Shown here in pieces: positions 15,117 to 43,680 of a DNA stretch of 64,000 nt (position 1 is the stretch's first letter; every line of letters begins with the position of its first letter). The stretch lies in NCBI GenBank assembly GCA_963808975.1, contig CAWEHR010000005.1:2007-66006 (forward strand), given 5' to 3'. This DNA comes from an uncultured Gammaproteobacteria bacterium. GTDB taxonomy: Bacteria; Pseudomonadota; Gammaproteobacteria; Pseudomonadales; JAHEGP01. Under the pieces are notes generated by a model. That model saw only the letters and a program-made list of their open reading frames with translations. It was not told where the DNA came from and made no database searches. The position numbers were made by a program, and so were the translations under genes.

Positions 15117-15158
15117 CGGCTTGTCCTGCAGTGTCGTTAAGCTAAGCGTGTCAGTGGG

Positions 15159-16712: not shown

Positions 16713-16817
16713 AAACTCGCAGTTAGTGGCTGATGGTTATAACGCAGCTATTACGCCGTGCGCCGGCCGTGGGCCGAGGTGTGGACCTGACCTCGACACC
16801 GATGGCCGGTACCGCAC

Positions 16818-26419: not shown

Positions 26420-26575
26420 TTAGGCGCTTGCCCGGGCACTGATTGCATTGTAGGAAAGCATGGCACTGGCAAGCAGTACCAGTGCTAGTGCGAGACTGAA
26501 GCCCAGCAGCATTAGTAGGGCGTTGGATATGGTGCGTTTTACTTTACGGTGAAGCTGTTGCACGGTGCTTGGCAT
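26420..26575 (-). CDS. Hypothetical small membrane protein (51 aa)
   Basis: MPSTVQQLHRKVKRTISNALLMLLGFSLALALVLLASAMLSYNAISARASA. It has one clear TM helix. I recognised no homology. Confidence 0.25.
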   Translation of the reverse strand: MPSTVQQLHRKVKRTISNALLMLLGFSLALALVLLASAMLSYNAISARASA

Positions 26576-26828
26576 GGAGTTTCTCCGGCGTCGGCCAGGA
26601 TGCTTCATCGACGACCAGTGGGCTGTGGGATGAACCGCCAAAGTCGACCGCCGCGGGCTCTGTGGCGGTTTTTTCGCCGACCACGGCGAAGGTGTAATAC
26701 GCCAGCGTGATATACCCAACGATAGCCAGCAGCAGGCCCGCGTCACCCAGCCAATTAATCGTGCCGTGCCGGGATTTTCCCCGGGGGCGGGATAGTTGTT
26801 GCGAGCTGTGTGTGCGGGTGGTTTGCAT
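26544..26828 (-). CDS. Hypothetical membrane protein (94 aa)
   Basis: It has a basic N-terminus followed by one TM helix (WLGDAGLLLAIVGYITLAYYTFAVV). It overlaps the 51-aa ORF by 32 nt. I recognised no homology. Confidence 0.3.
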   Translation of the reverse strand: MQTTRTHSSQQLSRPRGKSRHGTINWLGDAGLLLAIVGYITLAYYTFAVVGEKTATEPAAVDFGGSSHSPLVVDEASWPTPEKLHAKHRATASP

Positions 26829-27127
26829 AAATGCCTAACCAGGCGTCGGCGATGAACTTATGGGTAGAAGTTAGCGCCATTGCCATTTCATGTCTGCGGG
26901 ACTTGTACGCAAGAAGGGTGTGAACAATGTCTGGATCCTCGCCAGCGCTATCATGCAGTTGCATATTCGGCGGAGTAGTGTGACATGGTCGTCTGCAGCG
27001 CATGCCGGGCATTCGTGTTTGCCCAGTCAATCCCTGTCCGATTATCGGAGTCTGGAGCAGCCTGGGCGCGAAACTGACTTTCGTTCACTTCAAAAAAAGG
27101 TCAGAATTGCCTGCTTATCGTTTTCGC

Positions 27128-27168
27128 ACGAAGGGGTTGGGGGTGCAGCCCTTCGTTTTCGTTTTTTT
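27128..27168 (+). terminator. Terminator-like hairpin 24 nt upstream of the left trpG' repeat
   Basis: ACGAAGGG-(13 nt)-CCCTTCGT followed by TTTCGTTTTTTT on the + strand. Confidence 0.45.
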
Positions 27169-27192
27169 GTAGTCCAGTAGGTTAAACACACT

Positions 27193-27209
27193 ATGTTGCT
27201 GATGATCGA
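27193..27209 (+). repeat. Left copy of the 17-nt direct repeat (putative attL core)
   Basis: ATGTTGCTGATGATCGA, identical to 42043-42059, which is the first 17 nt of trpG. The integrase ATG lies 145 bp to its right. Confidence 0.6.
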
Positions 27210-27325
27210 AAAGAATCATGTGGGTTTGAACAGATCCAGCCAAGTCCAACGGTCCTCCTAAGTAGCTGTAGAATAAAAATATAAATTCCAGTCAATTACA
27301 GGAAAGTCCGTCGCCAGCCGGGGCA

Positions 27326-27355
27326 ATTGTGAGTACTCTTCGAGTTACTCACAAT
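27326..27355. promoter_or_regulatory. Inverted repeat over the integrase start (candidate integrase arm/operator sites)
   Basis: ATTGTGAGTA-(10 nt)-TACTCACAAT. The right arm includes the int ATG. The same 10-mer recurs at 41979-41988. Confidence 0.45.
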
Positions 27356-27935
27356 GCCGCTTACAGATTCAAAAGTTCGAAACGCCAAGCCCCGGGACAA
27401 GGTTTACCGCGTGGCCGGCGAGAAGGGCCTGTGCCTGAAGTTCCGCCCCTCAGGTTCCAAGTGGTGGCGCTACCGATATCGAATCAATGGAATGGCCGGC
27501 ATGTATGCCCTCGGTCAGTATCCTTACATGTCCTTGGCTCAGGCGAGGGTAGAGCACGGCAAGGCCATGGGCTTAGTGAAGTAGGGCACACCCCCGATTG
27601 AACATCTAAAGACGGCAAAGCACCAAGAGCAATTGGCAGAGGAGCAGACTTTCAAAGCCGTCACTGAAGCCTGGTTGGCAGAGAACTCCAATCATTGGAC
27701 GAACCGCTATCGGGCCCAGACCCAGAAGGCCTTAAAAAAGTACATCTACCCGAGTATTGGTTATGCCCCTATTAAGGAGGTGGCAGCGCCCGCGTTACGA
27801 GTTGTGATCAAGACCGCGGCAGAGGAAGCGCCGAGCGTGGCAGTCATGCTCCGGCAATGGTGCTCTGCTGTCTTTCGTTACGCTGTTCTCCAAGGTCTGG
27901 CCGAGCAGGATCCGGCTGCGGCACTCAAGGGGCTG
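27354..27935 (+). pseudogene. P4-type tyrosine integrase remnant (in-frame TAG, catalytic domain missing)
   Basis: The N-terminus MPLTDSKVRNAKPRDKVYRVAGEKGLCLKFRPSGSKWWRYRYRINGM is DUF4102-like. An in-frame TAG sits at 27582-27584. The same frame then continues through the SAM-like domain (FKAVTEAWL...YIYPSIGYAPIKEV...) until similarity ends near AAALKG. I saw no R..HxxR..Y catalytic domain. Confidence 0.8.
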
Positions 27936-28031
27936 GAATCGGTGGGGAAGGGTGCCAGTGATGGCGGTTCAGTAGGTCTAGTCCGCAGCGATTGTGTGCT
28001 TTATTCTACTTTTACCCATACCATTGCGCAC

Positions 28032-29638
28032 TCATAGTTGCGAGTCGATTGGCAGCAGCCGCATCAGGCTAACAGCTAAGCGTTGCCAGATATTGGTATG
28101 GGGCTCGACATCGAATACCAGCCGCCCTCCCTGGTCGTAACCGCTCCAGAGCAGCTGCTCGCCCCCATCCCCGTCGTCTTCCAGTGTGACCTGGAAGGCA
28201 ACCCGCTGGACGTTCAGGTCAAACCAGCCACCCAACGACTGTGCAATCTCGGGGACGTCGATTACCACACCAACCTCCGAGTTTTCGACAACGGAGCGTG
28301 GATCGAGATTGAGCGAGCCGATGAAGAGCCAGCGTCTGTCAGTGGCGAAGGACTTCGCGTGCAGGCTCGCCTTCGATGAGCCGGTGAAAAGCTTCCTGCC
28401 TTCTTGCTGCTTGGGTGTCAGTTGCCGGTTCATCTCGTAGAGCTCGACCCCGGCACGCAACAGCGCGCGGCGGTGACGTGCGTATCCTGCATGGACCAGA
28501 GGAACATCGGTCGAGGCGAGCGAGTTGGTGAGAATGCGCACGCGCACCCCGCGCTCGACCAGAGCAGTGAAATAATCAACGCCCTCACGGCCCGAAACGA
28601 AATAGGGTGAAAAGATAATCAGCTCCTGCTCAAGATCCCTGAAGTAGGGACCGAGCGCCTCGGTGAGGTGCAGCTCTTTTTTACTGCGGCTGGTGATCAG
28701 CTTTTCGGGATCATCGGCAACGACGTCAGCGCCTCCCCACAGTAGTCCCAGCTCACCCGCTTGCAGTTGTCTTGCAGCTGTGAGGTCTGCAATGCGCGTG
28801 AGTATTTGGAGTCGGTTTCAGAAGCTCTCAGGGCCTCGTGCCAGGCGCGCAGGCCGGCGACTTTTTCGTCATCCGGCAACTGGTCCACCAGAATCGAGGC
28901 AGGATAGGCCAGGGTATGATTCCAGTAGGCATCGAACGACACGGAAACTTCGCTAGCGACCGGGCCTATGCCGAGTACGTCGAGGTCGCCGAAGGCGAGC
29001 GCCGGATTTGCCTCAAAATACTCGTCACCGATATTGCGACCGCCCAGCACTGTCTCCTGGCTATCAACCGTGAAAGACTTGTTGTGCATGCGTCGAGTGA
29101 CGCTCCCGAAGCGGGTGACGAACTGCGAAAGCCGGCTCACATTACGCGCGAATGGATTGAAGATACGCACCTCGACGTTCGGGTGCGTATCGAGTGCCGC
29201 GACGCCCACGTCACGCCCCTCAAGATCCATGTCGTCTACCAGCAGCCGTACCCGCACACCGCGGTCTGCCGCCTTGAGCAACTAGCCAATGAAGAAATGT
29301 CCGGTCAGGTCATCATGCAGCAGGTAGTACTGTGCATCAATGCTGCGCTCGGCCGCACGCGCCAACGCAGAGCGAGCCACCAAGGCGTCAAGCCCGCTCC
29401 CGAGGAGCAGGAAACCGGAGCGATCGGGATGCGCTTCGCGCTGCGCCAGGAATGCCCGTCCGAGCCTCGTGTCCTGAGTATCGGCGGAACTGAAAGACGG
29501 AGTGCGATGCTCGTTGCCCGGCAATGTTGCGCACCCACCACTCGAAACAAATAGTAGCGACAGGACATACGATCGGGCCGGAATCTTCGAAGTCCGTGCC
29601 GTGAGATGCGGGCAGCATCGTCTTACGTGCCGGATCAC
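28032..29638 (-). pseudogene. Phospholipase D-family lipoprotein pseudogene (two HKD motifs)
   Basis: Three ORF pieces. The first has a lipobox (LLFVSSGGC) and ends at an in-frame TAG at 29282-29284. The second carries HKD motif 1 (RMHNKSFTVDSQETVLGGRNIGDEY). A frameshift near 28745 (LWGGADVVADDPEKL is in the other frame) leads to the third piece. That piece carries HKD motif 2 (SLHAKSFATDRRWLFIGSLNLDPRS). Confidence 0.8.
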
Positions 29639-30124
29639 CGGTACTGCCAGCAGCAGGATGTCACCGTGTTCCAGGCGTGACGATGAGAAATTGGCGCGTG
29701 GATCACTTCAAGCATGCCGCAATCGCCCGGCAGACAACCCCATGCACCCGTCCAATCAGTTGCGGGAGACCGGCGAATTGATATCTCAATTGAAACGAAA
29801 ATCTCAGCACCCATTGGCGTCTCGATTTCTCCGGTAAAACCTAATAGGCCAATAGCTGAACTCTCTGGCCAGAAGTCCGCCCCCTGGCGATGGTCTTCCC
29901 CTTGGATGGCAAGAGATTCGCGCCCCGCCTGATTCGGAGGGTACATCGCGACCCGGGCACTACAGCCACCAATGATTACCTCAAAAAAATACCCATCGCG
30001 CACCGTCGATTAAAGGCTCGGCGTTGTCGTTTCACCATACCATCGAGAATGTTTCCTTGCACGTGCCTGGCAGAGGCAGCCATGGCCAGATCCGGCATAT
30101 TGCAACCTGTTCGAAAAATAGCCT

Positions 30125-30427
30125 CTATTCCTGATCAGCATGGGGTAGGCTGCCAAAATAGTTCGACAAATCAGCATTCACAATATCCGGATGACCGCGA
30201 AACATTCGCTCTTCCACGTCAACCACCGCCTGCTGCGCATTACGCCGTGGACGGTAGGCGTGCATTTCCTCGGGAAGGTTCGCCTCGAAGATCGGCTCCA
30301 GCACCAGCAACGCTGCGGTCATGCAAACACGATCCCGCAGTGTAGAAATGCCCAGTGGCCGAAGCTTGCCGTTGGCTTTAGGAATAAACACACGCCTGAT
30401 GGCGCCCGGTCGATAGGTCTCCTCTCT
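30125..30427 (-). pseudogene. Group II intron reverse transcriptase fragment
   Basis: TYRPGAIRRVFIPKANGKLRPLGISTLRDRVCMTAALLVLEPIFEA...AYRPRRNAQQAV...ADLSNYFGSLPH. Only about 100 aa of the RT domain remain. I found no maturase domain or intron RNA domains. Confidence 0.7.
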
Positions 30428-30826
30428 CTCGAAAGCTGTCGTTCGCTCAGGGCCGGCGCCTCGGTCGATACACCAGCATGCAGCGAGACCCCCCGCTTCC
30501 TTAGCCACTCGGCCTGAGTCGCCTGAGCTATCTTCATCAGGGGGCAACGTCTGCAACGTGAGGACCTTCCTTCCCTGCTGAGGCCCTGTGGTATTGCTGG
30601 AGGTGATCGAACGGCCTTCCAATTGCACCATCGCGTCGTCATCATCTGGTTCCAGCGCCAGATAACTGCGCTCAGCATCGCGCTCGAGAAACCCTTTTTT
30701 CTTACGGAATCGGACTACAAGGAGACTGATCGCATGCAGCAGCGCTTTGAGTTCATCCTCGTTTGGCGCTTTTATCCGGTGAAAGCGCAAGCCCCCATAG
30801 TCATTATCCCCATACACGCCGTCTAG
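30425..30826 (-). pseudogene. IS91-family-like transposase, C-proximal fragment (frameshifted)
   Basis: ALDGVY...LRFHRIKAPNEDELKALLHAIS...ERDAERSYLALEPDDDDAMVQLEGRSIT...GPQQGRKVLTLQTLP, then GVSLHAGV in another frame. It is cut on one side by the Tn3-type IR and on the other by the RT fragment. The family assignment is from memory. Confidence 0.55.
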
Positions 30827-30929
30827 GGCACCTCTGATCAATTCGGTACTAGCTCAGCGAAGCCTTTGGTGATGGCTTGCAAGGCGCGGCGCTAAGCCTG
30901 AGGTGACACCGAATTAATCAGAGGTGCCC
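30826..30929. mobile_element. 104-bp miniature element bounded by inward-facing Tn3-family-like 38-bp IRs (TIME-like)
   Basis: IR-A at 30826-30863 is GGGCACCTCTGATCAATTCGGTACTAGCTCAGCGAAGC. IR-B at 30892-30929, reverse-complemented, is GGGCACCTCTGATTAATTCGGTGTCACCTCAGGCTTAG. They match at 27 of 38 positions, including 21 of the first 22. Confidence 0.55.
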
Positions 30930-31208
30930 TAGGATAAGCATGTGAAGCTGAGTTAACCATTGCCGAGATAGAGCACCTACTGGATTACAGCGAGACGATG
31001 AATTTTCGCCGGGCGCTTGTTCGCTGGAACGAGGTAACGCCCATTCGGTGGCGGAAAGCCTGATCCACTTTAGCGGGCAGAATTTAATCGTGGCCTGTCC
31101 TCGTTATTAGTGCGATAAAGAGATACTTGGAAATCTACCAATGGATTTGGCTGCCAACGAGAGGGAATAGATATCTTCAATCGTGATTTTTGGTTTGGCA
31201 AAAAGAAA

Positions 31209-32447
31209 ATGACCGAGAATGCGAGCGTGGGTCCTCGTGAGCGCGAGTGGCGTGAGCGCGGAGCTGCCGTACTCGCCCAGCCTTATGCGCCGAACCTCTG
31301 GCATCGGCATGGGCTACGCGAGCGCTCGCCCTGGTATTTTGCGAGCGCCCGAGGCGCCAGGGTTCGGGACCACGATGGTCGCGAGTTTATCGACCTGGAG
31401 ATGGGGCTCGGGCCCGTGCTTCTGGGCTATAACCATCCCATTGTTGAAGCGGCCCTTCTGGAAACTGCGCAGACGCCAGCTGTCACCACGCTCCTGCACC
31501 AAACGGAGGTTGAGGTCGCCGAGTTACTTGTTGACATGATTCCAAGCGCGGAAGTTGCAGTGTTCGGTAAGAACGGCTCGGACGCCTGCACTGCGGCTGC
31601 ACGGATAGCGCGAGCGGCCACCGGTCGCAATGTAATCTTGACCTGCGGGTTTCATGGCATTCACGATTGGTTTATAGCCGACGTATATCCCAGTGGTGGC
31701 CTCGTGCCCTCTTTTCGTGGCTATGTGAAGGACTTCGCGCTCAACGATCTGGAGGCCCTCACGAGATTGGCGCAAGAGCATTCGAAAGATCTCGCGGCCA
31801 TCATGATCGATCCGGCGAATAGGGCTACCCCTGAGCAGGGTTTCCTTGAGGGGGCACGACGAATCGCTGATCAGCACGGCGCGCTCTTGGTATTTGATGA
31901 GGTGTTCACGGCCTTTCGCGTTCACAGAGGCGGAGCCCAGACAATCTATGGTGTCACACCGGATCTCACCTGCGTCGGTAAAGCGCTGGCAAACGGACTT
32001 CCCCTCAGCGCAGTTGTGGGGCGCCGCGATATCATGAAGTTTTTAGACGAGGTGTTTTATGCACTGACCTTCCAGCACGATTCCGTGGCTTTGGCTGTCG
32101 CGCGGGCATGTTTACAATACTACCGAGATAATGATGTGGCCGCGGACGTGGGCCGCAAAGCGGAGCAGCTTCGAACTTTATACGATCAGGCAGCAGCCTC
32201 CGCAGGTCTTGAGGGGCGAGCTATGAAAGTTCCCGGGCGCATTGGCCTGCGTTTATTACGTTCCGGAAAGGCCACGGCGGCCCAGCAACAGGTCGTATTC
32301 GGTCATGCGCTGCTTGAGCGAGGCGTGTTGCCGGCTCGAATAGCGCTCCCTTGTGAACTACTAACGGATGCTGATATTGAACAGGTAGGGCTTGCATTCG
32401 AACACGGCTGTCAGGAAGTAGCGCGCTACATTCGCGAACAGAATTAG
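31209..32447 (+). CDS. Class-III (GSA-aminomutase-like) PLP-dependent aminotransferase
   Basis: 412 aa. Contains FIDLEMGLGPVLLGYNHP, FGKNGSDACTAAARIARA, LVFDEVFTAFR and a putative PLP lysine in CVGKALANG. Confidence 0.85.
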   Translation: MTENASVGPREREWRERGAAVLAQPYAPNLWHRHGLRERSPWYFASARGARVRDHDGREFIDLEMGLGPVLLGYNHPIVEAALLETAQTPAVTTLLHQTEVEVAELLVDMIPSAEVAVFGKNGSDACTAAARIARAATGRNVILTCGFHGIHDWFIADVYPSGGLVPSFRGYVKDFALNDLEALTRLAQEHSKDLAAIMIDPANRATPEQGFLEGARRIADQHGALLVFDEVFTAFRVHRGGAQTIYGVTPDLTCVGKALANGLPLSAVVGRRDIMKFLDEVFYALTFQHDSVALAVARACLQYYRDNDVAADVGRKAEQLRTLYDQAAASAGLEGRAMKVPGRIGLRLLRSGKATAAQQQVVFGHALLERGVLPARIALPCELLTDADIEQVGLAFEHGCQEVARYIREQN

Positions 32448-32504
32448 CGCAGGGTGTATAGTGGCCCCCATGGTTCAGGCAAATAATGTAGAAGGGTACC
32501 GGGT

Positions 32505-33482
32505 ATGATAGTGGATATCGAGGTGACCAATCGATGTAACGCGACCTGTACCTTCTGTCCCCGTGAACGCACCCCGGCCCAAGGGAAGATGGCCCCAGAG
32601 ACCTTCGCCGCAGCCCACGATCGGGTGTTCGAGTTTCGCGCGGGCTTAAAATACGATGCTGATCGCGCCAACCTCCGGGTCTCCTTCTGCGGTCTTGGTG
32701 AACCGTTACTGCACCCCCAGCTCGGCGATTGGATCAGGCGCTTTACTGAGTGTGACATCGGCGTCTCCCTCTCCACGAACGCGTCGCGGCTCGACGAAGG
32801 ACGGACGCAAGAGCTTCTGGATGCGGGCCTCGACATGATACATGTCAATCTCGGCGCGGAAGGCGGCGAGTATGAGACCATCTATGGGCTGTCCTACCAA
32901 GAGACCCGCCGTAATCTCGACCGGTTCATCGCGCTGGCCGCAGGCCGTTGTCGGGTTCGCGTCGCGGTGGTCGACTACCACGACACTCCTGACACCGCTA
33001 ACCGTCTTTCCCAAGCTTGGCTCGACCGGGGAGTGGCCTCCTATGTCTTCAAGCTGATCAATAGATCCGGGTCCCTGGTTGCCGACACCCGCCTCGAAAC
33101 GCTGGATCGTCGCCACCACGTTCGCGCCTGCACCCGGCTCACCGAGCTCATCGGTGACCAACCCGCCTGCGCGGTGCCGTTCAGGTTCTACTTCATCGGG
33201 TGGGACGGGTGTTACTACCTGTGCTCGTCCGATTGGGAGAAGCGGTCAGCCCATGGATCGGTTTTCGACCAATCATTGGCCGAGGCATCTGTGTCAAAAC
33301 TGGTTACTGTTCGTTCCCGGTCGCCGATCTGTGTCTCCTGTACCCATGATCCGATAAACCGTTTGGCTACGGCCTTCGGCGCGGGTGCCGAGCAACCCGA
33401 ACTCGCCGCACTCGAACGGGAGCTGGTTACGGCCAATGCGAGCGACACAACCCTCCAGCGCCACATTTTGCCTGCGTCCTGA
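32505..33482 (+). CDS. Radical SAM enzyme with C-terminal Cys-rich (SPASM/Twitch-like) domain
   Basis: 325 aa. Contains CNATCTFC (CxxxCxxC) at residues 11-18, GLGEPLL, and C-terminal cysteines (ACAVPFRFYFIGWDGCYYLC...SPICVSC). Confidence 0.85.
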   Translation: MIVDIEVTNRCNATCTFCPRERTPAQGKMAPETFAAAHDRVFEFRAGLKYDADRANLRVSFCGLGEPLLHPQLGDWIRRFTECDIGVSLSTNASRLDEGRTQELLDAGLDMIHVNLGAEGGEYETIYGLSYQETRRNLDRFIALAAGRCRVRVAVVDYHDTPDTANRLSQAWLDRGVASYVFKLINRSGSLVADTRLETLDRRHHVRACTRLTELIGDQPACAVPFRFYFIGWDGCYYLCSSDWEKRSAHGSVFDQSLAEASVSKLVTVRSRSPICVSCTHDPINRLATAFGAGAEQPELAALERELVTANASDTTLQRHILPAS

Positions 33483-33573
33483 ATATTTTGGGTCAGAGTA
33501 GAATGGCACTTACTAAGCCTAAGCCGCTGAAATACTGAAGGAAAAATGATCGACCTCGATGGTAAGGGGATTA

Positions 33574-33591
33574 AGGGTCAGGTCACGAATT
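33574..33591. repeat. Inverted copy of the RAYT-flanking motif
   Basis: AGGGTCAGGTCACGAATT is the reverse complement, at 17 of 18 positions, of AATTCGCGACCTGACCCT. That sequence is the core of the triple repeat at 34457-34553. This copy overlaps the transposase stop codon. Confidence 0.5.
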
Positions 33592-34431
33592 ATTACCCTT
33601 GCGGACGATTACTCCTACTGTGCTCGGGTGTAATTGAAAATACTCACCAATTTCTCGTTGACTGTAAGCACCCGTTGAGTAAGCGGTAATAATCGCGGCG
33701 TCCCTTCCTTTGGTTGCCTGCACTATCTCGGCCAAAGGCGGTGCTAAAGGTCGTTTTTGCTTTTGCGGTATATTCACATCGTCTTTTTCCTTGCCGATTT
33801 TTCGCTGCATACTGGACATGAAGGCTTCATCACCAAGATAAATTTGCCCTTTCAAGTCTGACCAGATATCGAGCTTGCTTTGAATCCCTTCGGCTACAAA
33901 TTGCCAATATTTTTTCATAGAACGTTCTTTTCGTGTTCCGAATTGGGATAACAACCAATCAGTTGTCAGCCAATCTGGTTGCGGCGCAACTCCAACCATT
34001 GCCAGGTAACTACTCCAAGGCCAATCTTCGATACGGTCAACCATTCCCTTGGCTCTCACTGGGTTAAGGACTACATACCGGGCAAGTTCGAGCAAATAAC
34101 TTTCCTTGTCAACCAGGATCGCCTTGTATCAGCCCTGAAAAAGGTGTCCACTACGTTTGTGCCGGCGGTTTGACGCTTGGGTATACACGCCATTGAGCTG
34201 ACGCATACCTTTCGATAAATTGCCGTCGAGGGTTTCGATGATCAGATGGTAGTGGTTGCCCATCAAACAATAGCCATGACATAACCAGTTATAATCTCTC
34301 ACGACGGCGCCTAAGATTTCGAGGAATTTCTCTCGGTCGTCATCGTCTTCATAGATATCTTCTCTACGATCTCCACGCGAAGTCACATGATAAAGAGCAT
34401 TCGGAAATTCGAGCCGCAGTGGTCTAGTCAT
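33583..34431 (-). pseudogene. Y1 (HUH) transposase, IS200/RAYT-like with C-terminal HTH, interrupted by an in-frame TGA
   Basis: MTRPLRLEFPNALYHVTSRG...CLMGNHYHLIIET...SGHLFQG-TGA(34129-34131)-YKAILVDKESYLLELARYVVLNPV... The sequence is in frame across the stop. Homologues typically have Arg there (QGRYKA). Confidence 0.75.
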
Positions 34432-34456
34432 ACTTCTGAAGTGGACACCCTTTATG

Positions 34457-34553
34457 CGCAATTCGCGACCTGACCCTACAGCCCCCCTTTATTCGCAATT
34501 CGCGACCTGACCCTACAGCCGCTTTTCGCAATTCGCGACCTGACCCTACAGCC
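34457..34553 (+). repeat. Three tandem copies of a 27-bp direct repeat upstream of the Y1 transposase
   Basis: CGCAATTCGCGACCTGACCCTACAGCC occurs at 34457-34483, 34494-34520 and 34527-34553, with periods of 37 and 33 bp. Confidence 0.85.
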
Positions 34554-34790
34554 GCTACAGCCGGTGGAAATGATAGGGTGAGGAGGAGTCCATCCCATTG
34601 CTCTAAGCGAAGCCCCGCAGGGCGGGCCTCTGGCGCCCATTGGACAAGGGGGCGGCCATCCGCTTGCGCCACTCGTCAAGGACAACCAGCCTTGACCTTC
34701 GCGGCGCGCCTTGCCAATGAACGCCAGAGGCTCCGCTGAAGCATTACCGAATTGATCAGAGTTGCCCTAATTGTTCTATACACCCGTGAC

Positions 34791-35522
34791 TTATCTATGT
34801 CGGTATAAGAAATCCCAATTTCTGCAAACGCCTCTTCCAGTATCACCGCCATCACGAGTTTCCACACCCCAATTACCATTCCAGTCCAAAGTAAATTTGA
34901 TGAACCTTGGATAGTGCGTACCTTCACCTCCATACGCGTATACGTCCAGTTCGAGATGGTTAGCATGAAAGACGGAATGCACTGGATATGCAGCGTCAAT
35001 ATATCTGCCTTCAGGCACTTCGCACACGACACTTAAAATTCCGCCCGCTTTTATCGCAGTAAACCGCTGCCACCTATCGGGCCTTGCTTCATCTCTGTCA
35101 AAGTCGGTAAACGTCCAGTCGTTATATCCTTGTAAAGGATATAACGGCCTGCCGACATATTGTACTGCGGGCACGAAATGAGCTTCGAGTGATACTCCTT
35201 CGATGCTTTGTCCATACATACTTGATATAACTTTGCCAGGTACATCAAAAGTACAGACTTGTCGTTCTTCGTTTAGATGTTCAGGTGCAGTTGGGCAATT
35301 GTTCCAATGGGAAAATTTCCATCCCTCATAAGGTCGGGCGGTATAAGTTTCTGTGTAATCGCCAATCACGACAGCTTTGCAGCGCTCCGGAAAGTCGCCT
35401 GAATTCTCACAGTTTCTAGTGCCGCTAGAAGAGATCACCGAACCCTTTCCATGCACGGCTATTCCGTGTTCGCAGCCGAAAAGTATTGCAGACAGAAAAA
35501 CTACGACTAAACGAAACAGCAT
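34791..35522 (-). CDS. Hypothetical lipoprotein
   Basis: The start is set at MLFRLVVVFLSAILFGC, a signal peptide with a lipobox. The segment is visibly AT-richer than its surroundings. I am not confident of any homology. The track ORF (304 aa) fuses it artificially to transposase-derived sequence. Confidence 0.5.
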   Translation of the reverse strand: MLFRLVVVFLSAILFGCEHGIAVHGKGSVISSSGTRNCENSGDFPERCKAVVIGDYTETYTARPYEGWKFSHWNNCPTAPEHLNEERQVCTFDVPGKVISSMYGQSIEGVSLEAHFVPAVQYVGRPLYPLQGYNDWTFTDFDRDEARPDRWQRFTAIKAGGILSVVCEVPEGRYIDAAYPVHSVFHANHLELDVYAYGGEGTHYPRFIKFTLDWNGNWGVETRDGGDTGRGVCRNWDFLYRHR

Positions 35523-35597
35523 CAGCACCACCCTCGTACAAGAACGTCGCTTATAGATGCAATTGTGCGGAATCAGGCCTATTGAGACATTGACCGG

Positions 35598-35928
35598 GGT
35601 CAACAAGTGGGTGGAGATTACCCGCTGAACAATGCCCAGCACCTTACCCATGAGCTCTGGGTAACTGGCCAGTAGTAACCGGAGCTGGAACGGAAAACTC
35701 AACACCTACTGGCGAATCGGCTGATGGGGCAGAACATCGTCGACCAGCAGCGCGGCACTCTCGGCCATCCGTCTGGCGCCACAGCTGGGACAAATGCCGC
35801 GTCGCTCGCTTAAGGCGCCTACTTTTGGTACAACTGAAAGCCACCAGGCGCTCGTGATGACAGCCCTCGCAGCGCACACGTAAAAAGCCATGTTCCAAGC
35901 GACCGCACTGGAGGTAGTCGTCGAATTC
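35598..35928 (-). pseudogene. IS91-family-like transposase, N-proximal fragment (zinc-ribbon region)
   Basis: EFDDYLQCGRLEHGFLRVRCEGCHHERLVAFSC, a frameshift, then GICPSCGARRMAESAALLVDDVLPHQPIRQ. An in-frame TAG at 35706-35708 is followed by VLSFPFQLRLLLASYPELMGKVLGIVQRVISTHLL. Similarity ends near 35598. Confidence 0.6.
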
Positions 35929-35929
35929 C

Positions 35930-36323
35930 CTCGCTGCCGCAACTGTACAACCTGCTGGCGGGGGACATGAGCCTGGTGGGTCCACGTCCCATGCCGGGGG
36001 TCCACGTGGACGCCCTCGACAGCGCAACACGTGCGACATTGCTCTCGGTACGCCCGGGAGTGACCGACCCCGCCTCAGTCCTGTTTTTCGCCGAGGATGC
36101 GGTATTGGCCGGGCGGCCCGATGCGGAGGCACAGTACCTGCGCGTGCTGCTCCCCGCCAAGGCCCGGGTGCAGGTGGAGTACCTGCGCCACTGGCATCCT
36201 TGGCGGGACGTCAGCGTCATTTTCCAGGCGCTGGCATGGGTCTGGTCACCTGCAGCGCGGCATGACTCCAGGCGGCGCGTTCGGGAGATACTCTCGGGTG
36301 GTGCGCAGGAGGAAGATCGGTAA
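35930..36323 (+). pseudogene. Bacterial sugar transferase (polyprenyl-phosphate glycosyl-phosphotransferase) C-terminal fragment
   Basis: LPQLYNLLAGDMSLVGPRP...RPGVTDPASV. Only the C-terminal roughly 130 aa are present. It abuts the transposase fragment. Confidence 0.6.
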
Positions 36324-36346
36324 CCCCGGGTTCAGCCCGCTGTGCG

Positions 36347-38128
36347 TTAATGGAAGGGCCAGATAAACGGGGACAGGGCGACAGTTACCAGGCCCAGCAC
36401 GATATTGAGCGGCAATCCAATCCGCAGGTAGTCGGAAAAACGGTAGCCACCGGGCCCATACACCATCAGGTTGGTCTGGTAGCCGATGGGCGTCGCAAAG
36501 CTTGCCGACGCCGCCAGCATCAGCACCGCGATGAATGGCCACAGTGAGACGCCCATCGCCGCCGCCGTGGCCTGAGCAATCGGGAACATCAGCACCGCCG
36601 CCGCATTATTGGTGATTACCTCGGTCATGATACTGGTGAGCGCATATATCATCAGCAGCACCAGCCAGGGCCGCTGGCCTGCCAGGTCCAGACCAACGTG
36701 TGCGATCGCCTGGGCCGCCCCGCTGACTTCCATCGCCGATCCCAGGCCCAGCGACGCGCCAATCACCACCAGCACCGACCAGTCGATACTGGCCCTGGCC
36801 GAGCCTGCCGTGGTGCACTGGGTGACCAGCATCAGTCCGCCCGCCAGCAGGGCCGCCTCCAACATCGACAGCCAGCCCGCTGTTGCCGCCACCACCATGA
36901 CAACCAGGATAGACGTGGCCAGCCAGGCGCGATCGTGGCGCGGCACGGCATCGCCTCGCAGGGGATGGATCAGCAGGAAATCCCGGTTGTGCTGGTGTTG
37001 CTGGAAAAATGTGGGGCGCGCTTCCAGCAGCAGGGTATCACCGGGGTGCAGCACGATATCGCCGATCCGGCCTTCGATTCGCGCCCCATTGTGCGCCGCC
37101 GCGATGACGACCGCCTCGTAATGGGAGCGAAACTTGGCATCGCGAATGGTCTGCCCAACCATCGGACAGGTTGCGGAGATGACCACCTCGATGAGTTGTC
37201 GATTGCTGCGGGGGGTCGCCAGGTCGTGCCGGTTCTCAGTCACCGGGGTAAGCCCCGGCTGGCGCACCAGCTCAATCACCGAATGCACGGCGCCGACAAA
37301 TACCAGCCGATCATCGGCCTTTAGCACCTCGGTGGGTGGCACCGCCACCAGCATATTGTCATCGCGCCAGATGCCGGACAGGAAGACCCCGGGCAGGTGG
37401 CGCAAACCGGCGCGCTCGATGCTCCTGCCCACGAGGGGGCCGCCCCGCTCGACCTTGAACTCGATCGTATATTCACGCGCGCTCTCGCTGAGTTGCAGCG
37501 GGGGAATGCGCTCCGGCAGCAACCACCGCTGGGTGAGCAGGACAAAAAAGAAGCCGACCACCGCAACGGGCAATCCCACCGCTGCGATTTCAAAGAAGCC
37601 CATGGGTCCGAGCTCCGTGTGCTCCAACACCAGCCCGTGGACCACCAGGTTGGTACTGGTGCCGATCAGCGTGCAACAACCCCCCAGGATTGCGGCGTAA
37701 CTCAGGGGCAGCATGAGCTTGGATACCGAGAGGTGATGCCGTCGACACCATTCCTCCACCACCGGCACCAACATGGCCACCACCGGGGTGTTGTTCAGGA
37801 ACGCACTGATGCCCATCACCGGCACCATCATTCGCGTTTGCGCGCCGACGATACTGCGCGGCCGCCCGAGCAACCTGGCCCCGAACACCTGCACCGCTCC
37901 GGTATCGACCAGGCCGGCAACCACGACATACAGGACCGCGACCGTCGCCAGGCCGGGATTGGCGAATCCCGACAGGGCCTGGTGAGTATCCAGGACCCCG
38001 AACAGCAACAGGCTGGCCAGTGCCCCCACCATGACGATTTCCGGGGAGAACCGATTGCTGACCAGGCACGCGAGGCTTGCTGCCACGACAAGCAAGGTGA
38101 GCCAGGCATCGGGGGACATGGCCGCCAT
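36347..38128 (-). CDS. SLC13/DASS-type permease with two central TrkA-C (RCK_C) domains
   Basis: 593 aa and polytopic. Two TrkA-C-like soluble segments lie in the middle (GPLVGRSIERAGLRHLPGVFLSGIWRDD... and CPMVGQTIRDAKFRSHYEAVVIAAAHNG...). Confidence 0.85.
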   Translation of the reverse strand: MAAMSPDAWLTLLVVAASLACLVSNRFSPEIVMVGALASLLLFGVLDTHQALSGFANPGLATVAVLYVVVAGLVDTGAVQVFGARLLGRPRSIVGAQTRMMVPVMGISAFLNNTPVVAMLVPVVEEWCRRHHLSVSKLMLPLSYAAILGGCCTLIGTSTNLVVHGLVLEHTELGPMGFFEIAAVGLPVAVVGFFFVLLTQRWLLPERIPPLQLSESAREYTIEFKVERGGPLVGRSIERAGLRHLPGVFLSGIWRDDNMLVAVPPTEVLKADDRLVFVGAVHSVIELVRQPGLTPVTENRHDLATPRSNRQLIEVVISATCPMVGQTIRDAKFRSHYEAVVIAAAHNGARIEGRIGDIVLHPGDTLLLEARPTFFQQHQHNRDFLLIHPLRGDAVPRHDRAWLATSILVVMVVAATAGWLSMLEAALLAGGLMLVTQCTTAGSARASIDWSVLVVIGASLGLGSAMEVSGAAQAIAHVGLDLAGQRPWLVLLMIYALTSIMTEVITNNAAAVLMFPIAQATAAAMGVSLWPFIAVLMLAASASFATPIGYQTNLMVYGPGGYRFSDYLRIGLPLNIVLGLVTVALSPFIWPFH

Positions 38129-39066
38129 TACGGCCGCGCATCCTCACCCGGCGCAACCTCCGGGAGGGGGAACAATTCCTCCCGCTGCGCGTCGAGGGTC
38201 AGGAGCAGGCTGGAGGCGATATAGATGGACGAGTAGGTCCCCACCCCGATACCGACAATCAGGGCGACGGAGAAGCCGAACAGGGCCTCCCCGCCTAACA
38301 GGCACATCGCAGCCAACACCAGCAGTGTCGTGAAGGAGGTAGCCAGTGTGCGGTCCAGGGTGGACGATATCGCCGTGTTGATGACCTGGCTAGTGTCCAG
38401 TTTGCGCGTCGTGCGAAAGACCTCCCGGATACGGTCGAACACCACGATCGTATCGTTGATCGAGTAGCCGATGACCGCCAGGATTGCCGCCAGCACGGGC
38501 AGGCTGAACTCCCAACGGGTCACCGAGAAGCAGCCCAGGGTAATGATGACGTCGTGGACCAGGGCCAGCAGGGCACCGGCGGCAAACTTGAGCTGGAAAC
38601 GGAAGGTGATATACAGCGCCACCAGGCCCAGCGCCAACAGTATTGCCAACCCGCCACGCTCGCGCAATTCCTCGCCCGTGGACGGCCCCACATATTCCAT
38701 GCCGAGCAGTTGTATGCCCGGGTCTATACTGTCCTGGAATTCCTCGACCAGCTTGTCACCCAGCAGGGGGTCATTGTCTACCGCCAGCCGAACCATCACC
38801 TCCGTATCACTGCCGACGGCGACCACCGATGCATTCCGGTAGCCGTTCGCGTCCAGCTGCTGCCGGATGCTGTCCACCGGGTTTGTCCCGGGGGCAACCC
38901 GGGGGAAATCCAGTTGGAGCGAGACACCGCCGGTGAAATCGAGTCCGAAGTTGAGCCCCTGGACGACCAGCGACACCAGCGACCCGGTGACCAGCACCAG
39001 TGAAAGGAGCGACACCGCGAGGCGCCGGCCCATAAAATCCATCGGTCCCTTACGCACAGCAAACAT
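38128..39066 (-). CDS. secF: Protein translocase subunit SecF (no adjacent secD)
   Basis: 312 aa. Contains GLNFGLDFTGG, YVGPSTGEELR, HDVIITLG, GYSINDTIVVFDRIRE and GTYSSIYIAS. The stop TAA shares one nucleotide with the ATG of the downstream permease (TAATG). Confidence 0.9.
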   Translation of the reverse strand: MFAVRKGPMDFMGRRLAVSLLSLVLVTGSLVSLVVQGLNFGLDFTGGVSLQLDFPRVAPGTNPVDSIRQQLDANGYRNASVVAVGSDTEVMVRLAVDNDPLLGDKLVEEFQDSIDPGIQLLGMEYVGPSTGEELRERGGLAILLALGLVALYITFRFQLKFAAGALLALVHDVIITLGCFSVTRWEFSLPVLAAILAVIGYSINDTIVVFDRIREVFRTTRKLDTSQVINTAISSTLDRTLATSFTTLLVLAAMCLLGGEALFGFSVALIVGIGVGTYSSIYIASSLLLTLDAQREELFPLPEVAPGEDARP

Positions 39067-39081
39067 CTCTCAAGCCTCTTT

Positions 39082-39132
39082 TTTACTCATGGGTAAGCGC
39101 GCAGTGATGCGGGGCGCTTACCCGTGAGTAAA
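39082..39132. repeat. 19-bp-arm near-perfect inverted repeat in the secF leader
   Basis: TTTACTCATGGGTAAGCGC-(13 nt)-GCGCTTACCCGTGAGTAAA, with 18 of 19 positions paired. It ends 16 nt upstream of the secF ATG. Confidence 0.6.
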
Positions 39133-39295
39133 GCTCCGGTAAGGGCAGAAATGGTCGCTGGTTCACAATGCTGGTTTGCGGGTTAGCGTGAAAAAGTGCT
39201 GGCTCAACCTGTCAGCGCGCCGGTGTAGCGCCGTCGCGACATCGCGGGCGCGACCGGGAGGCAGGGAGTGCAAGTGGTATGAGCATAATCGCCTG

Positions 39296-39325
39296 GTGCA
39301 AACAAGGCCCGCCACAGGGCGGGCC
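39296..39325 (-). terminator. Candidate terminator after the CaCA antiporter gene
   Basis: The minus strand reads GGCCCGCC-CTGT-GGCGGGCC followed by TTGTTTG. Confidence 0.45.
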
Positions 39326-39366
39326 GCCGATGCGCGTATCATATAGCCGGAATAACGGGGCAGCAA

Positions 39367-39398
39367 TGGGCCCGGATAAAATTGGGCCCGGATAAAAT
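39367..39398. repeat. Perfect tandem duplication of a 16-mer
   Basis: TGGGCCCGGATAAAAT repeated twice with no spacer, in the CaCA-secF intergenic region. Confidence 0.85.
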
Positions 39399-39459
39399 CC
39401 ACGGGAATTCAGTCAAACTGTGAAAATTACCGGCAGCGACCCCACCCCCGGCAGGCCCG

Positions 39460-40422
39460 TCAGCCCCGTTGCACCACGTACACCATATAGGCGACATAGA
39501 CCGCCACGAATACCGCACCCCAACGGCGCGAAATGGTGGCGGCGCGGCTGCTCACAATGGCGAGCAAAATCAACAAGGTGGCCACGATGACCATGATGAT
39601 GTCGAAGTTGCTGATCACGTTGAACGGGAGCTCGTGGATACTTGAGGCCACGCCCACAATCCAGAGGATATTGAAGATGTTGGAACCCACAACATTGCCG
39701 ACCGCGATATCCGTCTCCTTGCGGTAGGCGGCCATGGCGGACGCCACCAGTTCGGGCAGGGAAGTGCCAATCGCGACAATCGTCAGCCCGATCAGCGCTT
39801 CGTCAACGCCCCACTCTTTGGCCAGGGCCACGGCGCCATCGACAGCCCACAGGCCGCCGAAATACAGGCCCGCCACGCCGAGCAGGATAAACACGATCGA
39901 CCGCACCAACGATGCCTCGGACAGGGATTCCCGACCATCAACACCGTCATTGTCACTTTTCGATATCGAGTAGATGTAGAGCATGAAGAGCAGGAAAAAT
40001 CCCAGCAGGATTGCGCCATCGAGACGACTGATACTCAGTTCATGCTTGGGGCTAAACAGGGCGGCATTGGCAAGAAAACCGAGCAGGATAGCCGCGCTGA
40101 GAGAGAAAGGAATCTCCGAGACCACCGTCGAGCTTTGCACTCGAAGCGGGTAGATCAGAGCGGCCACCCCCAGCACTACCAGTATGTTGAAGATATTGCT
40201 GCCCAGTACATTGGCGACAGCGAGATCCGCATTGCCTCGTGCCGCGGCGACGACACTGACCAGCATCTCCGGCATGGAGGTGCCAAATGACACGACCGTC
40301 AGCCCGATCATCAGGGGAGATACGCCGTATCTTGCGGCGATGGAGGAGGCGCCCTTCACCAGGAAATCCGCTCCCAAAAGCAGCAAAACGAGGCCCAGCA
40401 GGATCAACAGTGCATCAGTCAT
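39460..40422 (-). CDS. CaCA-family cation/Ca2+ antiporter (YrbG-like)
   Basis: 320 aa. Contains two alpha-repeats (GTSMPEMLVSVVAA...GSNIFNILVVLG and GTSLPELVASAMAA...GSNIFNILWIVG). Confidence 0.88.
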   Translation of the reverse strand: MTDALLILLGLVLLLLGADFLVKGASSIAARYGVSPLMIGLTVVSFGTSMPEMLVSVVAAARGNADLAVANVLGSNIFNILVVLGVAALIYPLRVQSSTVVSEIPFSLSAAILLGFLANAALFSPKHELSISRLDGAILLGFFLLFMLYIYSISKSDNDGVDGRESLSEASLVRSIVFILLGVAGLYFGGLWAVDGAVALAKEWGVDEALIGLTIVAIGTSLPELVASAMAAYRKETDIAVGNVVGSNIFNILWIVGVASSIHELPFNVISNFDIIMVIVATLLILLAIVSSRAATISRRWGAVFVAVYVAYMVYVVQRG

Positions 40423-40632
40423 GGATAAATGGTCTCAAGCTACAAGCCGACAGCAAAACTAACATATCTGCGTCAATTACTTGAGCACACTCCCTGAAAA
40501 ATTGAGGGCGGCCGGTGGGAGACCCCACGGATTGCGTGTGCCGCCCGCTGCCGGGTAAAGTCCACTGTGCTAGTCTCACCACTTTGCAGGTCGGCCCAAA
40601 CACGGGCCCGAGCGCCAACGGGAAGCCCCGCT

Positions 40633-40902
40633 ATGGAAAACTGGATGTCGGATTCCGTGGGAATGCTGGGAACGCTGCTGGTGGTTCTCGCCTATTTCCT
40701 CCTACAGCTGGAGCGGCTCAATCCACGCGGCCTGGGTTACAACCTGATCAACCTGCTGGGCGCTACCTGTCTCCTGTTCAGCCTGTTGTTCACCTTCAAC
40801 CTCGCCAGCTTCGTCATTGAGCTGTTCTGGATCGCCGCCTCACTGATCGGCCTGTGGAAGTTCCGGCAGCGCCAGACACGCGACAGTCAGTCTTCCAGCT
40901 GA
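40633..40902 (+). CDS. Small three-TM membrane protein (CBU_0592-like family, from memory)
   Basis: MENWMSDSVGMLGTLLVVLAYFLLQLERLNPRGLGYNLINLLGATCLLFSLLFTFNLASFVIELFWIAASLIG. Start moved to the ATG at 40633. Confidence 0.55.
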   Translation: MENWMSDSVGMLGTLLVVLAYFLLQLERLNPRGLGYNLINLLGATCLLFSLLFTFNLASFVIELFWIAASLIGLWKFRQRQTRDSQSSS

Positions 40903-41460
40903 TAGCAGGGCCGGTATTGCTCGCCGCCGAGTTTCATCCGGTTTTCGCGCGCCAGCATTTGCAGTAACCGGTCGAGGGCGGCGACTACCTGCCGGTCGCC
41001 GGTCAGCTTGTAGGGACCGTGGCGCTGCACCTCCTGGATACCAAATGCCTTCACGTTGCCGGCGACCAGACCCGAGAAGGCACAGCGCAAATTTCCGGCC
41101 AGTTCGTGTTTCGGAAGCGAGGCACGCAATTCAAGTGCCGCCATGCCGGCGTGGTCCGGCACGAAGGGCGCCTGCAGTTCCGGCGCGATCTGCAAGGCCC
41201 AGTTGAAGTAGTAGGCCTGCCGAGAATCGCGTCGGCGGACCTGCACCCCGTCCGTGGCCTCGCGCACCCGGCAGTGTTCCCTCACCTCCTCCCCCAGGCA
41301 TTGGACCAGGAAGTGCTGCAGCTCTTCGAAGTAGGCGCGACAGGGTTCGGGGCCGGTAAGGACCAGCGGGATAGCCTCTTTGTTCTCGGGGTGCATGAGG
41401 ATGGCGAGCAGGTAGAGGATTTCCTCCACGGTGCCGACGCCCCCGGGGAATGCGCTTGAC
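40887..41460 (-). pseudogene. PpnN/YgdH-type LOG-family nucleotide nucleosidase, 5'-truncated
   Basis: Starts within FPGGVGTVEEILYLLAILMHPENK...PLVLTGP. Only the C-terminal roughly 190 aa are present, compared with a full-length family size of roughly 450 aa (from memory). Confidence 0.7.
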
Positions 41461-41690
41461 AAACACCAGAGCGGAAAGGGCCTGCTTGGATCGGCTACCA
41501 TAGGGCTGCTTTTTCTCTGGGGTATCGATCTCGGCCAGTCTGATTTTTTACCTGCCAGTTATCGACCGTGAGGAGAGTGACGGTATCGCCGTCAGTGATA
41601 CCGACGATCTTGCCGCCTGGTAGCCCAGACGCGTGGACATGAACGGCAATTAGCCATATCAGTGGGAACAGGGGTTGCTTAGCGAATCCA
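41460..41690 (-). pseudogene. Staphylococcal-nuclease-like (thermonuclease) remnant
   Basis: Manual translation gives LIWLIAVHVHASGLPGGKIVGITDGDTVTLL. After a 1-nt frameshift in an A-run (41541-41550) it continues VKIRLAEIDTPEKKQPYGSRSKQALSALVF. There is no start codon, and it is fused to the truncated ppnN. Confidence 0.45.
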
Positions 41691-41966
41691 ACTACACAAT
41701 GTGAAAAGAGCCGCTTGACGTGCTAATTTCTTAGGTCTGAGAAGAGGGTTAAGGACTCCGGTAGGACCTAGTCCCAAGGCATCTGTTTCAGCCATCCCTC
41801 GTGGCGGGACATTCAGTGGCCCGAATTCAGATCTGGGTCATGGGTTTAATAGCAGCGGATTTGATACGGCTCAAAACATTGGCTCGAGCAGCAAGTCGTC
41901 GAAAACTGCTTCCGTTTGCAGTCAATTGCCTTCAAAATTGCCCGTTTGCCGGGCGGTAACAGTCGT

Positions 41967-41990
41967 AAAGTGAGTAACATTGTGAGTAAC
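41967..41990 (+). promoter_or_regulatory. Direct repeats of GTGAGTAAC near the right island end (candidate integrase arm sites)
   Basis: AAAGTGAGTAACATTGTGAGTAAC. GTGAGTAAC also occurs inverted at 27344-27352, and ATTGTGAGTA at 27326-27335. Confidence 0.45.
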
Positions 41991-42042
41991 AAGGCGTGAT
42001 ATCGATAATGTATATTATAAAAAACATAGGGATGTGCAAATA

Positions 42043-42059
42043 ATGTTGCTGATGATCGA
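42043..42059 (+). repeat. Right copy of the 17-nt direct repeat (putative attR core), which is the trpG start
   Basis: ATGTTGCTGATGATCGA, identical to 27193-27209. Confidence 0.6.
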
Positions 42060-42621
42060 TAACTATGACTCGTTTACCTACAACGTGGTGCAATACCTGG
42101 GTGAGCTGGGTGCCGAGGTAGAAGTGCATCGCAATGACGAGATCAGCATTGATGACATACGCCGATTGCAGCCCGAGCGCATCGTCATTTCTCCGGGCCC
42201 CTGCACGCCCAACGAAGCGGGGATCTCAATGGCCGTTATCGAGGCCTTCGCCGGCGAACTTCCGCTGCTGGGCATCTGCCTTGGTCACCAGAGTATTGGC
42301 CAGGTGTTTGGCGGCAGGGTGGTGCGTGCCCGCAGGGTAATGCACGGTAAAACCTCAATGATTCATCACAGCGATAGCGGCGTCTTTGCCGGGCTTCCCC
42401 AGCCGTTTGAGGCCACCCGCTACCATTCCCTGGTGATCGAGCGAGAGTCATTGCCTGATTGCCTCGAAATTACCGCCTGGACCGAGACGCAGGATGGCGA
42501 CATTGATGAAATCATGGGCGTTCGCCACCGGGACCATAAAATAGAAGGGGTGCAATTTCACCCGGAGTCTATTCTCACGCGCTGTGGCCATGATTTGTTG
42601 GCCAATTTCCTCAAACTTTAA
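42043..42621 (+). CDS. trpG: Anthranilate synthase component II (glutamine amidotransferase)
   Basis: [19 protein letters not shown]...GICLGHQ...HPES. Start set at the ATG at 42043. The track ORF begins at an upstream GTG (42034). Confidence 0.93.
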
Positions 42622-42632
42622 ACCTGGGGCAC

Positions 42633-43679: not shown

Positions 43680-43680
43680 T

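Follow-up and report, generated by a model that had tools for sequence, protein, structure and literature searches.

A 14.85-kb insert was identified at the start codon of trpG, in the gap between trpE and trpG, in 64,000 nt of DNA from an uncultured gammaproteobacterium (contig CAWEHR010000005.1 of assembly GCA_963808975.1, positions 2,007 to 66,006). This whole stretch is referred to as the window, and positions are counted from its first letter. The insert is very probably a decayed integrative element, either a genomic island or a prophage-derived island, that was inserted at the trpG start by a P4-like tyrosine integrase. The window copy of this integrase is a dead P4-like stump from which the catalytic domain has been deleted, and P4-like integrases predicted to target the first ~17-23 nt of trpG form a widespread but barely described group. 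The features at the two ends of the insert are given below, with attL and attR for the left and right attachment junctions, B for the host arm, P and P' for the element arms and int for the integrase gene.

24889-26382, plus strand: trpE, the core gene of the left flank (Chorismate_bind and Anth_synt_I_N domains; syntenic with the metagenome-assembled genome L002)
26420-26828, minus strand: two small conserved host-native genes in the trpE-trpG gap, with homologous open reading frames (ORFs) in relatives
27078-27192, plus strand: native trpG leader, the B arm of attL (32-nt element at 27078-27109, hairpin at 27132-27165, native Shine-Dalgarno region)
27193-27209, plus strand: attL core, the displaced first 17 nt of trpG, an exact repeat of 42043-42059
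27210-27353, plus strand: P' arm, with putative arm-type sites over the int start (ATTGTGAGTACT at 27326-27337, plus strand; ATTGTGAGTAAC at 27344-27355, minus strand)
27354-27935, plus strand: integrase pseudogene, a P4-like N-terminal stump of ~194 of ~400 codons, recognised by its domains and by tblastn
41909-42042, plus strand: P arm, now the trpG leader, with putative tandem sites (GTGAGTAAC at 41970-41978; ATTGTGAGTAAC at 41979-41990)
42043-42059, plus strand: attR core, the first 17 nt of the restored trpG, an exact repeat of 27193-27209
42043-44505, plus strand: trpG (42043-42621), trpD (42633-43679) and trpC (to 44505), all intact and syntenic with L002

Exactly two copies of the 17-nt sequence ATGTTGCTGATGATCGA are present in the window (27193-27209 and 42043-42059). 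Allowing one mismatch recovered the same two copies only, and 100 shuffles gave no match. The second copy opens trpG, an intact 192-aa GATase (glutamine amidotransferase) gene of which it forms codons 1-6. The first copy ends 145 bp ahead of an ORF with the Arm-DNA-bind_3 and Phage_int_M domains; the element is bounded by the direct repeats, and the integrase adjoins one of them. This arrangement had been proposed in a first-pass annotation made from the sequence alone, all coordinates and distances of which were reproduced. That annotation had also raised the question of whether the 17-mer recurs, and the window contains no further copy. Identity between the two copies extends to 19 of 20 nt. 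Since the flanking bases differ at -1 and +18, the crossover can be assigned to a point within the 17 nt. The 64-kb window contains no tRNA gene, an Rfam search of 24000-45000 gave no match, and no exact-protein match to the TrpG or TrpE of the window is on record.

The best genome match for the window TrpE is that of L002, an uncultured gammaproteobacterial metagenome-assembled genome (93% identity), and the next matches, in Marinobacter and Oleiphilaceae, are ~70% identical. The host is an uncultured gammaproteobacterium, not Pseudomonas. Synteny with L002 on the trpE side has 81% DNA identity and reaches window position 26938; it resumes at the trpG ATG, with 84% identity onward. Three states of the trpE-trpG gap were observed within the host clade among the contigs of TrpG relatives, namely an empty gap, a different insert and the window island. 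The gap is empty, with an unoccupied attB, in L093 and L094 (TrpG 94% identical), L095 (91%) and L083-L088 (90%). The gene order in these relatives is trpE, two small minus-strand genes, a leader of 230-460 bp and trpG. The small genes encode ORFs of 51-55 and 93-95 aa in L083, L084-L087, L093 and L095, and only the 51-aa ORF was called in the gap of L088. A different insert, containing a 904-aa ORF, an isochorismatase gene and glcDEF, is present in L002 (positions 12053-19811; contig CAVVVC010000005.1), and L089, L090 and L092 contain a 904/905-aa ORF and isochorismatase without glcDEF. The 904/905-aa ORF has no Pfam hit, and the TrpG of its carriers is 93% identical to that of the window. 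The window island itself was also found in contig L001 from another sample, with 99.85% identity over the 10.5 kb aligned.

The junction in L093 reads GTTAAACAAACT|ATGTTGCTGATGATCGA|TAACTATGAC, in the wider context ...GTAGTTCAGTAGGTTAAACAAACT|ATGTTGCTGATGATCGA|TAACTATGACTCG, and is collinear with the window left flank, the core and the window trpG. An empty site of this kind had been predicted in relatives from the window alone; the L093 site differs from the predicted sequence by one mismatch in 39 nt, L095 likewise carries the empty site, and the trpE-trpG gap of the empty relatives is 0.46-0.9 kb. Window positions 27078-27192 align to the region upstream of trpG in L093, L094 and L095 right up to the ATG. 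The L093 alignment identifies the sequence to the left of 27193 as the native trpG leader (B arm), and the sequence to the left of 42043 as having arrived with the insert (P arm).

The two halves of the integrase stump match PF13356 (Arm-DNA-bind_3; 6.5e-18) and PF22022 (Phage_int_M; 3.6e-25), and are parted by an in-frame TAG at 27582-27584 (codon 77). Homology to 25 homologues in tblastn covers residues 1 to ~194 and stops at 27881-27932. The catalytic domain having been lost, the island is unable to excise or move by itself. The proposed P4-type integrase N-terminus reading into the island is confirmed, but only a stump is left, with no self-mobility. The stop codon leaves a 76-aa ORF (27354-27584) spanning the arm-binding domain, and the presumed binding sites of its product would overlap its own start and the promoter-like site before trpG.

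A scan of metagenome contigs, based on the stump aligned to 16 homologues, recovered 80 loci; a scan of the same kind with the stump protein alone gave no match. The stump is 39-57% identical to these homologous integrases, including the intact proteins L097 (403 aa) and L133 (402 aa), which contain the three domains Arm-DNA-bind_3, Phage_int_M and Phage_integrase (PF00589). The core ATG(C/T)TGCTGATGATCGA was found upstream of int, on the same strand, in 61 of the 80 loci. Together with the viral contigs described below, these loci bear out the expectation that intact homologues use the same attachment core. The distance between core and int is mostly 175-205 bp (161 bp in the window), and reaches several hundred bp to ~1.15 kb in a few loci. 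A P' pattern, WAAnnnnCAT...TCC, is conserved after the core and is also present in the window. The sequence before the core varies from locus to locus, as expected for different hosts, and these diverse upstream flanks argue against the link between integrase and core being an artefact of redundant contigs. They are also the opposite of what would be expected if the core beside int belonged to a gene of the element and did not mark a junction. The end of trpE directly precedes the core in many loci, and no tRNA gene was found in the 35 homologue loci scanned. One locus from an NCBI assembly (L293; protein labelled Pseudomonas sp.) contains rpe, trpE, 13 nt, the core, the P' arm and int, in this order. 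Overall, the trpG-start core was found beside homologous integrases in more than 75 independent loci.

A second pair of occupied and empty sites was found in another host. The occupied loci L178, L179 and L158 are 98% identical to the unoccupied loci L259 and L278 until 22 nt into trpG, after which the P' arm and int follow; the identity block is ~23 bp. Among the IMG/VR loci with upstream sequence, most of those with at least 41% integrase identity carry the core, and those with 39% or less do not. An integrase homologue of a Ralstonia megaplasmid has 44% identity and no trpG core, so specificity is not a simple function of identity. A literature search for a described integrase clade or attachment site at the trpG/pabA 5' end gave only island names in a TIGER supplement, and a family-level description is apparently missing from the searchable literature.

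The far end of the element was examined with a search of IMG/VR viral contigs for the trpG 5'-end pattern, which retrieved the far ends of two prophage contigs already recovered through their integrases. L258 is the opposite end of the 48-kb L211 contig, and L267 is the opposite end of the 40-kb L194 contig. In both contigs, int and trpG occupy opposite ends and are oriented as in the window. The attR junction, consisting of a P arm, the core and an intact trpG, is visible in L258, L267, L266 and L276 (IMG/VR prophages of 29-48 kb).

The 10-mer ATTGTGAGTA had been noted three times by the first-pass annotation, in a layout suggesting integrase arm sites. It occurs exactly three times in the window, at 27326 (plus strand), 27346 (minus strand) and 41979 (plus strand), with 0.02 expected. 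The pattern GTGAGTAMY occurs four times, always within 150 bp of a 17-mer, with 0.6 expected. In L096, L097, L108 and L112, the loci with the closest integrase homologues, the P' arm contains two direct and one inverted GTGAGTA just before int. On the far side, CTGTGAGTAACATTGTGAGTAAC was found in the viral contigs L266 (40.6 kb) and L276 (28.8 kb), as far from the trpG ATG as the identical tandem at 41970-41990 of the window; the TrpG of the hosts of these contigs is only ~70% identical to that of the window. In L258 and L267, the motif GCGGGTAT appears twice in the P arm with a spacing of 12 bp, at -74 and -62 relative to the trpG ATG. The P' arm of L293 has two direct sites and one inverted site, as in the closest homologues, but with the motif GCGGGTAT. 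The motif varies with integrase subclade, being GTGAGTA in the window, L096/L097, L108/L112, L266 and L276, and GCGGGTAT in L258, L267 and L293. Since the repeats lie at fixed arm positions in unrelated hosts, they belong to the element and not to the host. Their presence in both arms, with positions kept throughout the family, agrees with the suggested layout, and the GTGAGTAAC repeats are putative arm-type sites to which the integrase would bind.

Yersinia phage YeP5 (L292, MK733263) contains, at 1240-1500, a tandem of CCGGATAA copies 12 bp apart upstream of int, and direct and inverted CCGGATAA copies just before int. This arm geometry is the same as in the trpG family. A core beginning with ATG was suspected in YeP5 and was dropped because it maps off the junction published for YeP4.

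The leaders on the two sides of the island have different signals. A terminator-like hairpin with a T run is present at 27132-27165, ~30 bp before the displaced ATG, and a similar one is found in L093. This hairpin may be an attenuator of the native leader, to judge by its structure; in the integrated state, the host promoter region is on one side of it and int on the other. The P arm contains a Shine-Dalgarno-like AGGGA (42028-42032) 10 nt before the trpG ATG, which is the native spacing; AGGT-N10-ATG spacing is common to native leaders and to the P arms of other elements. One promoter-like sequence, TTGTGA-18-GATAAT (41980-42009), overlaps an arm site, in a count no more than expected by chance. 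The view that the start codon was regenerated by the island is upheld, and in addition the right arm replaces the entire trpG leader. The region upstream of trpG in L002 and L089 contains a degenerate GTGAGTA tandem, TTGTCAGTATG/AAAGTGAGTACT, at -74 and -62, and no B arm, core (left repeat) or int was found in the gap of these relatives. This region is probably a relic P arm of a related island, as its motif and spacing suggest.

Insertion would have occurred by site-specific recombination between the attP of the element and an attB formed by the first 17-23 nt of trpG, as far as the crossover chemistry can be deduced from the two junctions. The element would have carried its own copy of the trpG start, ATGTTGCTGATGATCGA. 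The native leader with the displaced 17 nt would have stayed on the left as attL, pointing into int, and the P arm with the 17 nt of the element would have been fused in frame to the remaining trpG as attR. A 5'-end target that is rebuilt at the int-distal junction requires the P arm to replace the leader of the gene. The P arm side would supply the first five and a half codons, start codon included, together with the arm sites, the Shine-Dalgarno sequence and probably the promoter, and trpGDC would be intact yet placed under upstream sequence supplied by the element. The catalytic domain of the integrase would have been lost later, insertion sequence (IS) and intron debris gained, and the element would now be fixed.

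Several observations weigh against insertion of the 14.85 kb by such an integrase. No core was found in 19 of the 80 homologue loci, which may comprise some without upstream sequence and others that use different targets. The phage record collection yielded no attP, circular form or integrase DNA of the family; the closest proteins in it reached 42% identity to L097 and 52% to L133 (Yersinia phages YeP4-6). The tblastn search with 25 homologues found no remnant of the catalytic domain (Phage_integrase) in the 64-kb window. The P arm bears an otherwise clade-specific 32-nt motif that a simple attP does not predict. This element, CTTYCGTT-N15-YCARAATTG, is present once upstream of trpG in all 12 clade relatives (L002, L083-L093) and twice in the window, in the native leader (27078-27109) and in the P arm (41909-41940); related elements from other hosts lack it in their P arms. 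Gene fragments, interspersed with a few intact genes, make up the mosaic interior of the island; its GC content ranges from 51 to 65%, and some of the 14.85 kb may thus post-date integration.

An alternative route is that the island was made by the integrase elsewhere and reached this lineage by homologous recombination through the trpE and trpGDC flanks, already integrated and perhaps already decayed. This route is unlikely, if far from negligible. It would account for the occurrence of the same decayed island in the second sample (L001), for the patchy state of the clade, in which relatives with similar TrpG are empty (L093) or differently filled (L002, L089), and for a P arm that resembles the L002-type trpG upstream region more than the native leader of the window itself. 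However, the B arm is continuous with the L093-like left flank of the window, and no recombination breakpoint was detected in the flanks. Recombination of this kind would alter the route of arrival and not the nature of the element.

A second alternative takes the right leader (41909-42042) as native and the left copy (27078-27209) as a duplicated or translocated trpG leader and 5' end that was brought with the island. The clade-specific 32-nt element on both sides and the likeness of the right leader to the L002/L089 trpG upstream region speak for it. It is nevertheless very improbable, as the left copy equals the empty-site leaders base for base near the ATG (GTAGTYCAGTAGGTTAAACAMACT) and is contiguous with the trpE-side synteny, the tandem GTGAGTAAC sites of the right copy also occur in the element arms of unrelated hosts (L266, L276), and the upstream regions of the two copies differ too much to stem from a duplication in which a non-coding 17-mer stayed perfect. 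A variant with a native right leader and a repeat longer than 17 nt was rejected on the basis of the empty-site alignment and the L266/L276 arms. Least credible of all is a 17-nt repeat that arose by chance or as a transposon target-site duplication, with the insert built by IS91/ISCR, intron and other elements and the integrase incidental: the ISCR/IS91, group II intron reverse transcriptase (RT) and REP/RAYT sequences and the heterogeneous GC content fit it, but the shuffles gave no match, the same core stands beside homologous integrases at a mostly conserved distance in the many independent loci, arm repeats are found at both ends of the insert and IS91-type elements are not known to make a target duplication. 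Insertion at trpG by the P4-like integrase is preferred to each of these alternatives.

The genes inside the island, between the integrase stump and the P arm, are as follows.

28032-28547 and 28697-29281, minus strand: PLD-like gene split in two ORFs, decayed, with scores far below the curated cut-offs
30125-30841, minus strand: ISCR/IS91 transposase fragment and group II intron RT fragment in one chimeric ORF, far below the curated cut-offs
31209-32447, plus strand: intact class-III aminotransferase, forming an intact cargo pair with the next gene
32505-33482, plus strand: intact radical SAM/SPASM protein, the partner of the aminotransferase
33564-36323, minus strand: REP-like repeats, a RAYT-like ORF and IS91/ISCR transposase fragments, with a Bac_transf fragment on the plus strand
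36347-38128, minus strand: intact CitMHS/TrkA_C transporter
38128-39066, minus strand: intact SecF-like protein, with a score above the curated cut-off
39460-40422, minus strand: intact Ca/Na antiporter, with a score above the curated cut-off
40887-41650, minus strand: thermonuclease-like N-terminal fragment (frameshift) fused to a 5'-truncated ppnN that is without its 5' half

The aminotransferase and radical SAM/SPASM pair is bracketed by a ~110-bp palindrome with 35-nt arms (30823-30932) and an inverted copy of it (34697-34769), which lie 3.8 kb apart. The pair may be a mobile cassette, on the evidence of this bracketing. Three tandem 36-nt REP-like repeats (34448-34553) and an inverted partner (33564-33591) flank two ORFs, a 170-aa ORF and a RAYT-like (Y1_Tnp) ORF at 34129-34461.

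The R/F-type pyocin clusters of Pseudomonas and other tailocin clusters occupy the same trpE-trpG gap. Most of the IMG/VR loci L259-L291 are tailocin-like clusters whose end coincides with the trpG ATG, the attachment site described here; L259 encodes baseplate, sheath, tape measure and endolysin proteins. No integrase, direct repeat, displaced second core or arm repeats were found in the tailocin loci within the sequence covered, and a trpE scan of the viral contigs, aimed at the trpE-side edge of the tailocins, gave no match. Elements of the family insert at the boundary between tailocin and trpG in the same hosts (L178, L179 and L158). The prophages L258 and L267 contain tail genes and an endolysin of the same PHROG beside attR, in the same order and orientation as in the tailocins. 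DNA identity between family prophages and tailocins is 68-76% over the endolysin and ~80% in the sequence directly before trpG.

A tentative explanation, which is more doubtful than not, is that the phylogenetically unrelated trpE-trpG tailocins of Pseudomonas (R/F pyocins, R-syringacin and others) are grounded prophages that entered via this site. After loss of the attL end, of int and of the genes for head and replication, such prophages would be left with tail and lysis genes that abut trpG. The relic P arm of L002 and L089 would then be a small-scale example of the same decay. Published accounts treat the trpE-trpG location of tailocins only as a hotspot. A pyocin-annotation study of P. 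aeruginosa reports that, in some genomes, unexplained non-pyocin genes and an integrase separate the endolysin from trpG (PMC13624779); NZ_CP029090.1, NZ_CP194326.1, NZ_CP081202.1 and NZ_CP155048.1 are named there as having non-pyocin genes at this place. These inserts fit the trpG-start integrase family. The first-pass annotation had considered the junction a recurrent hotspot of unrelated elements. This holds in so far as another insert is present in L002 and L089 and tailocins abut the site, but some of these occupants are possibly relics of the same family. If true, the entry of tailocins via the trpG start offers a testable mechanism for the trpE-trpG tailocin hotspot.

The core ATGYTGCTGATGATCGA encodes the conserved first beta-strand of TrpG/PabA and is therefore present in many Proteobacteria. 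This breadth makes the integrases candidate broad-host-range tools for site-specific insertion. The site also gives a precise boundary for the annotation of islands and prophages adjacent to trpG, including the inserts between pyocin genes and trpG in P. aeruginosa. In a lysogen, trpGDC would be cut from its native leader and int would lie downstream of the host trp promoter, an arrangement from which regulatory effects are possible.

The closest known systems are compared here, beginning with phage P4 and Pseudomonas phage phiAH14b (KU708005). The integrases of both have the same three-domain architecture as the intact trpG homologues, and L097 is ~42% identical to each of them. The P4-like attP layout is also the same, with the core, a P' of ~180-230 bp with two direct repeats and one inverted repeat, and int reading away. 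The tRNA-targeting phiAH14b contains GTGAGTAG repeats in the same layout. P4 and phiAH14b differ in that a tRNA gene contributes its 3' end as the core and is restored at the int-proximal junction. In the trpG elements a protein gene contributes its 5' end and is restored at the int-distal junction, so that translation signals, and presumably transcription signals too, have to come from the far arm. A P4-like integrase lineage has shifted from a tRNA 3' end to a protein-gene 5' end with its attP geometry kept, and retention of this geometry forces the far arm to serve as a replacement leader for an essential biosynthetic operon.

Integration at the 5' end of a protein gene is also found in the SXT/R391 elements, which insert at prfC by means of a tyrosine integrase and reportedly use a 17-bp core at the 5' end of that gene. 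SXT/R391 provides a new promoter and N-terminal codons to prfC. These elements differ in being conjugative and in having another integrase clade and target.

The dusA islands are integrated in the 5' end of a housekeeping gene with semiconserved direct repeats of 21-28 bp (Farrugia et al. 2015, PMC4482086). They supply a replacement 5' end and a putative promoter, their cargo is highly variable with the integrase as the sole common feature, and their excision was shown by PCR (PMC4482086). Like these islands, the trpG elements target the 5' end of a conserved protein gene, which stays intact after insertion. The dusA-associated integrases, in contrast, form a separate tyrosine-recombinase family nearest Rci, and the P4-like integrase of the window is set apart from them by description, domains and best matches. 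The names Aba171.49.trpG, Dsu1.43.trpG and Dda2.10.pabA are given to islands by TIGER/Islander (PMC7192596, supplementary file 3). To judge by their names, these islands were assigned computationally to trpG or pabA as the target gene, and they are not taken up in the main text. The window island is one more, decayed member of the known elements that integrate at the 5' ends of genes, as SXT does at prfC and the dusA islands do at dusA.

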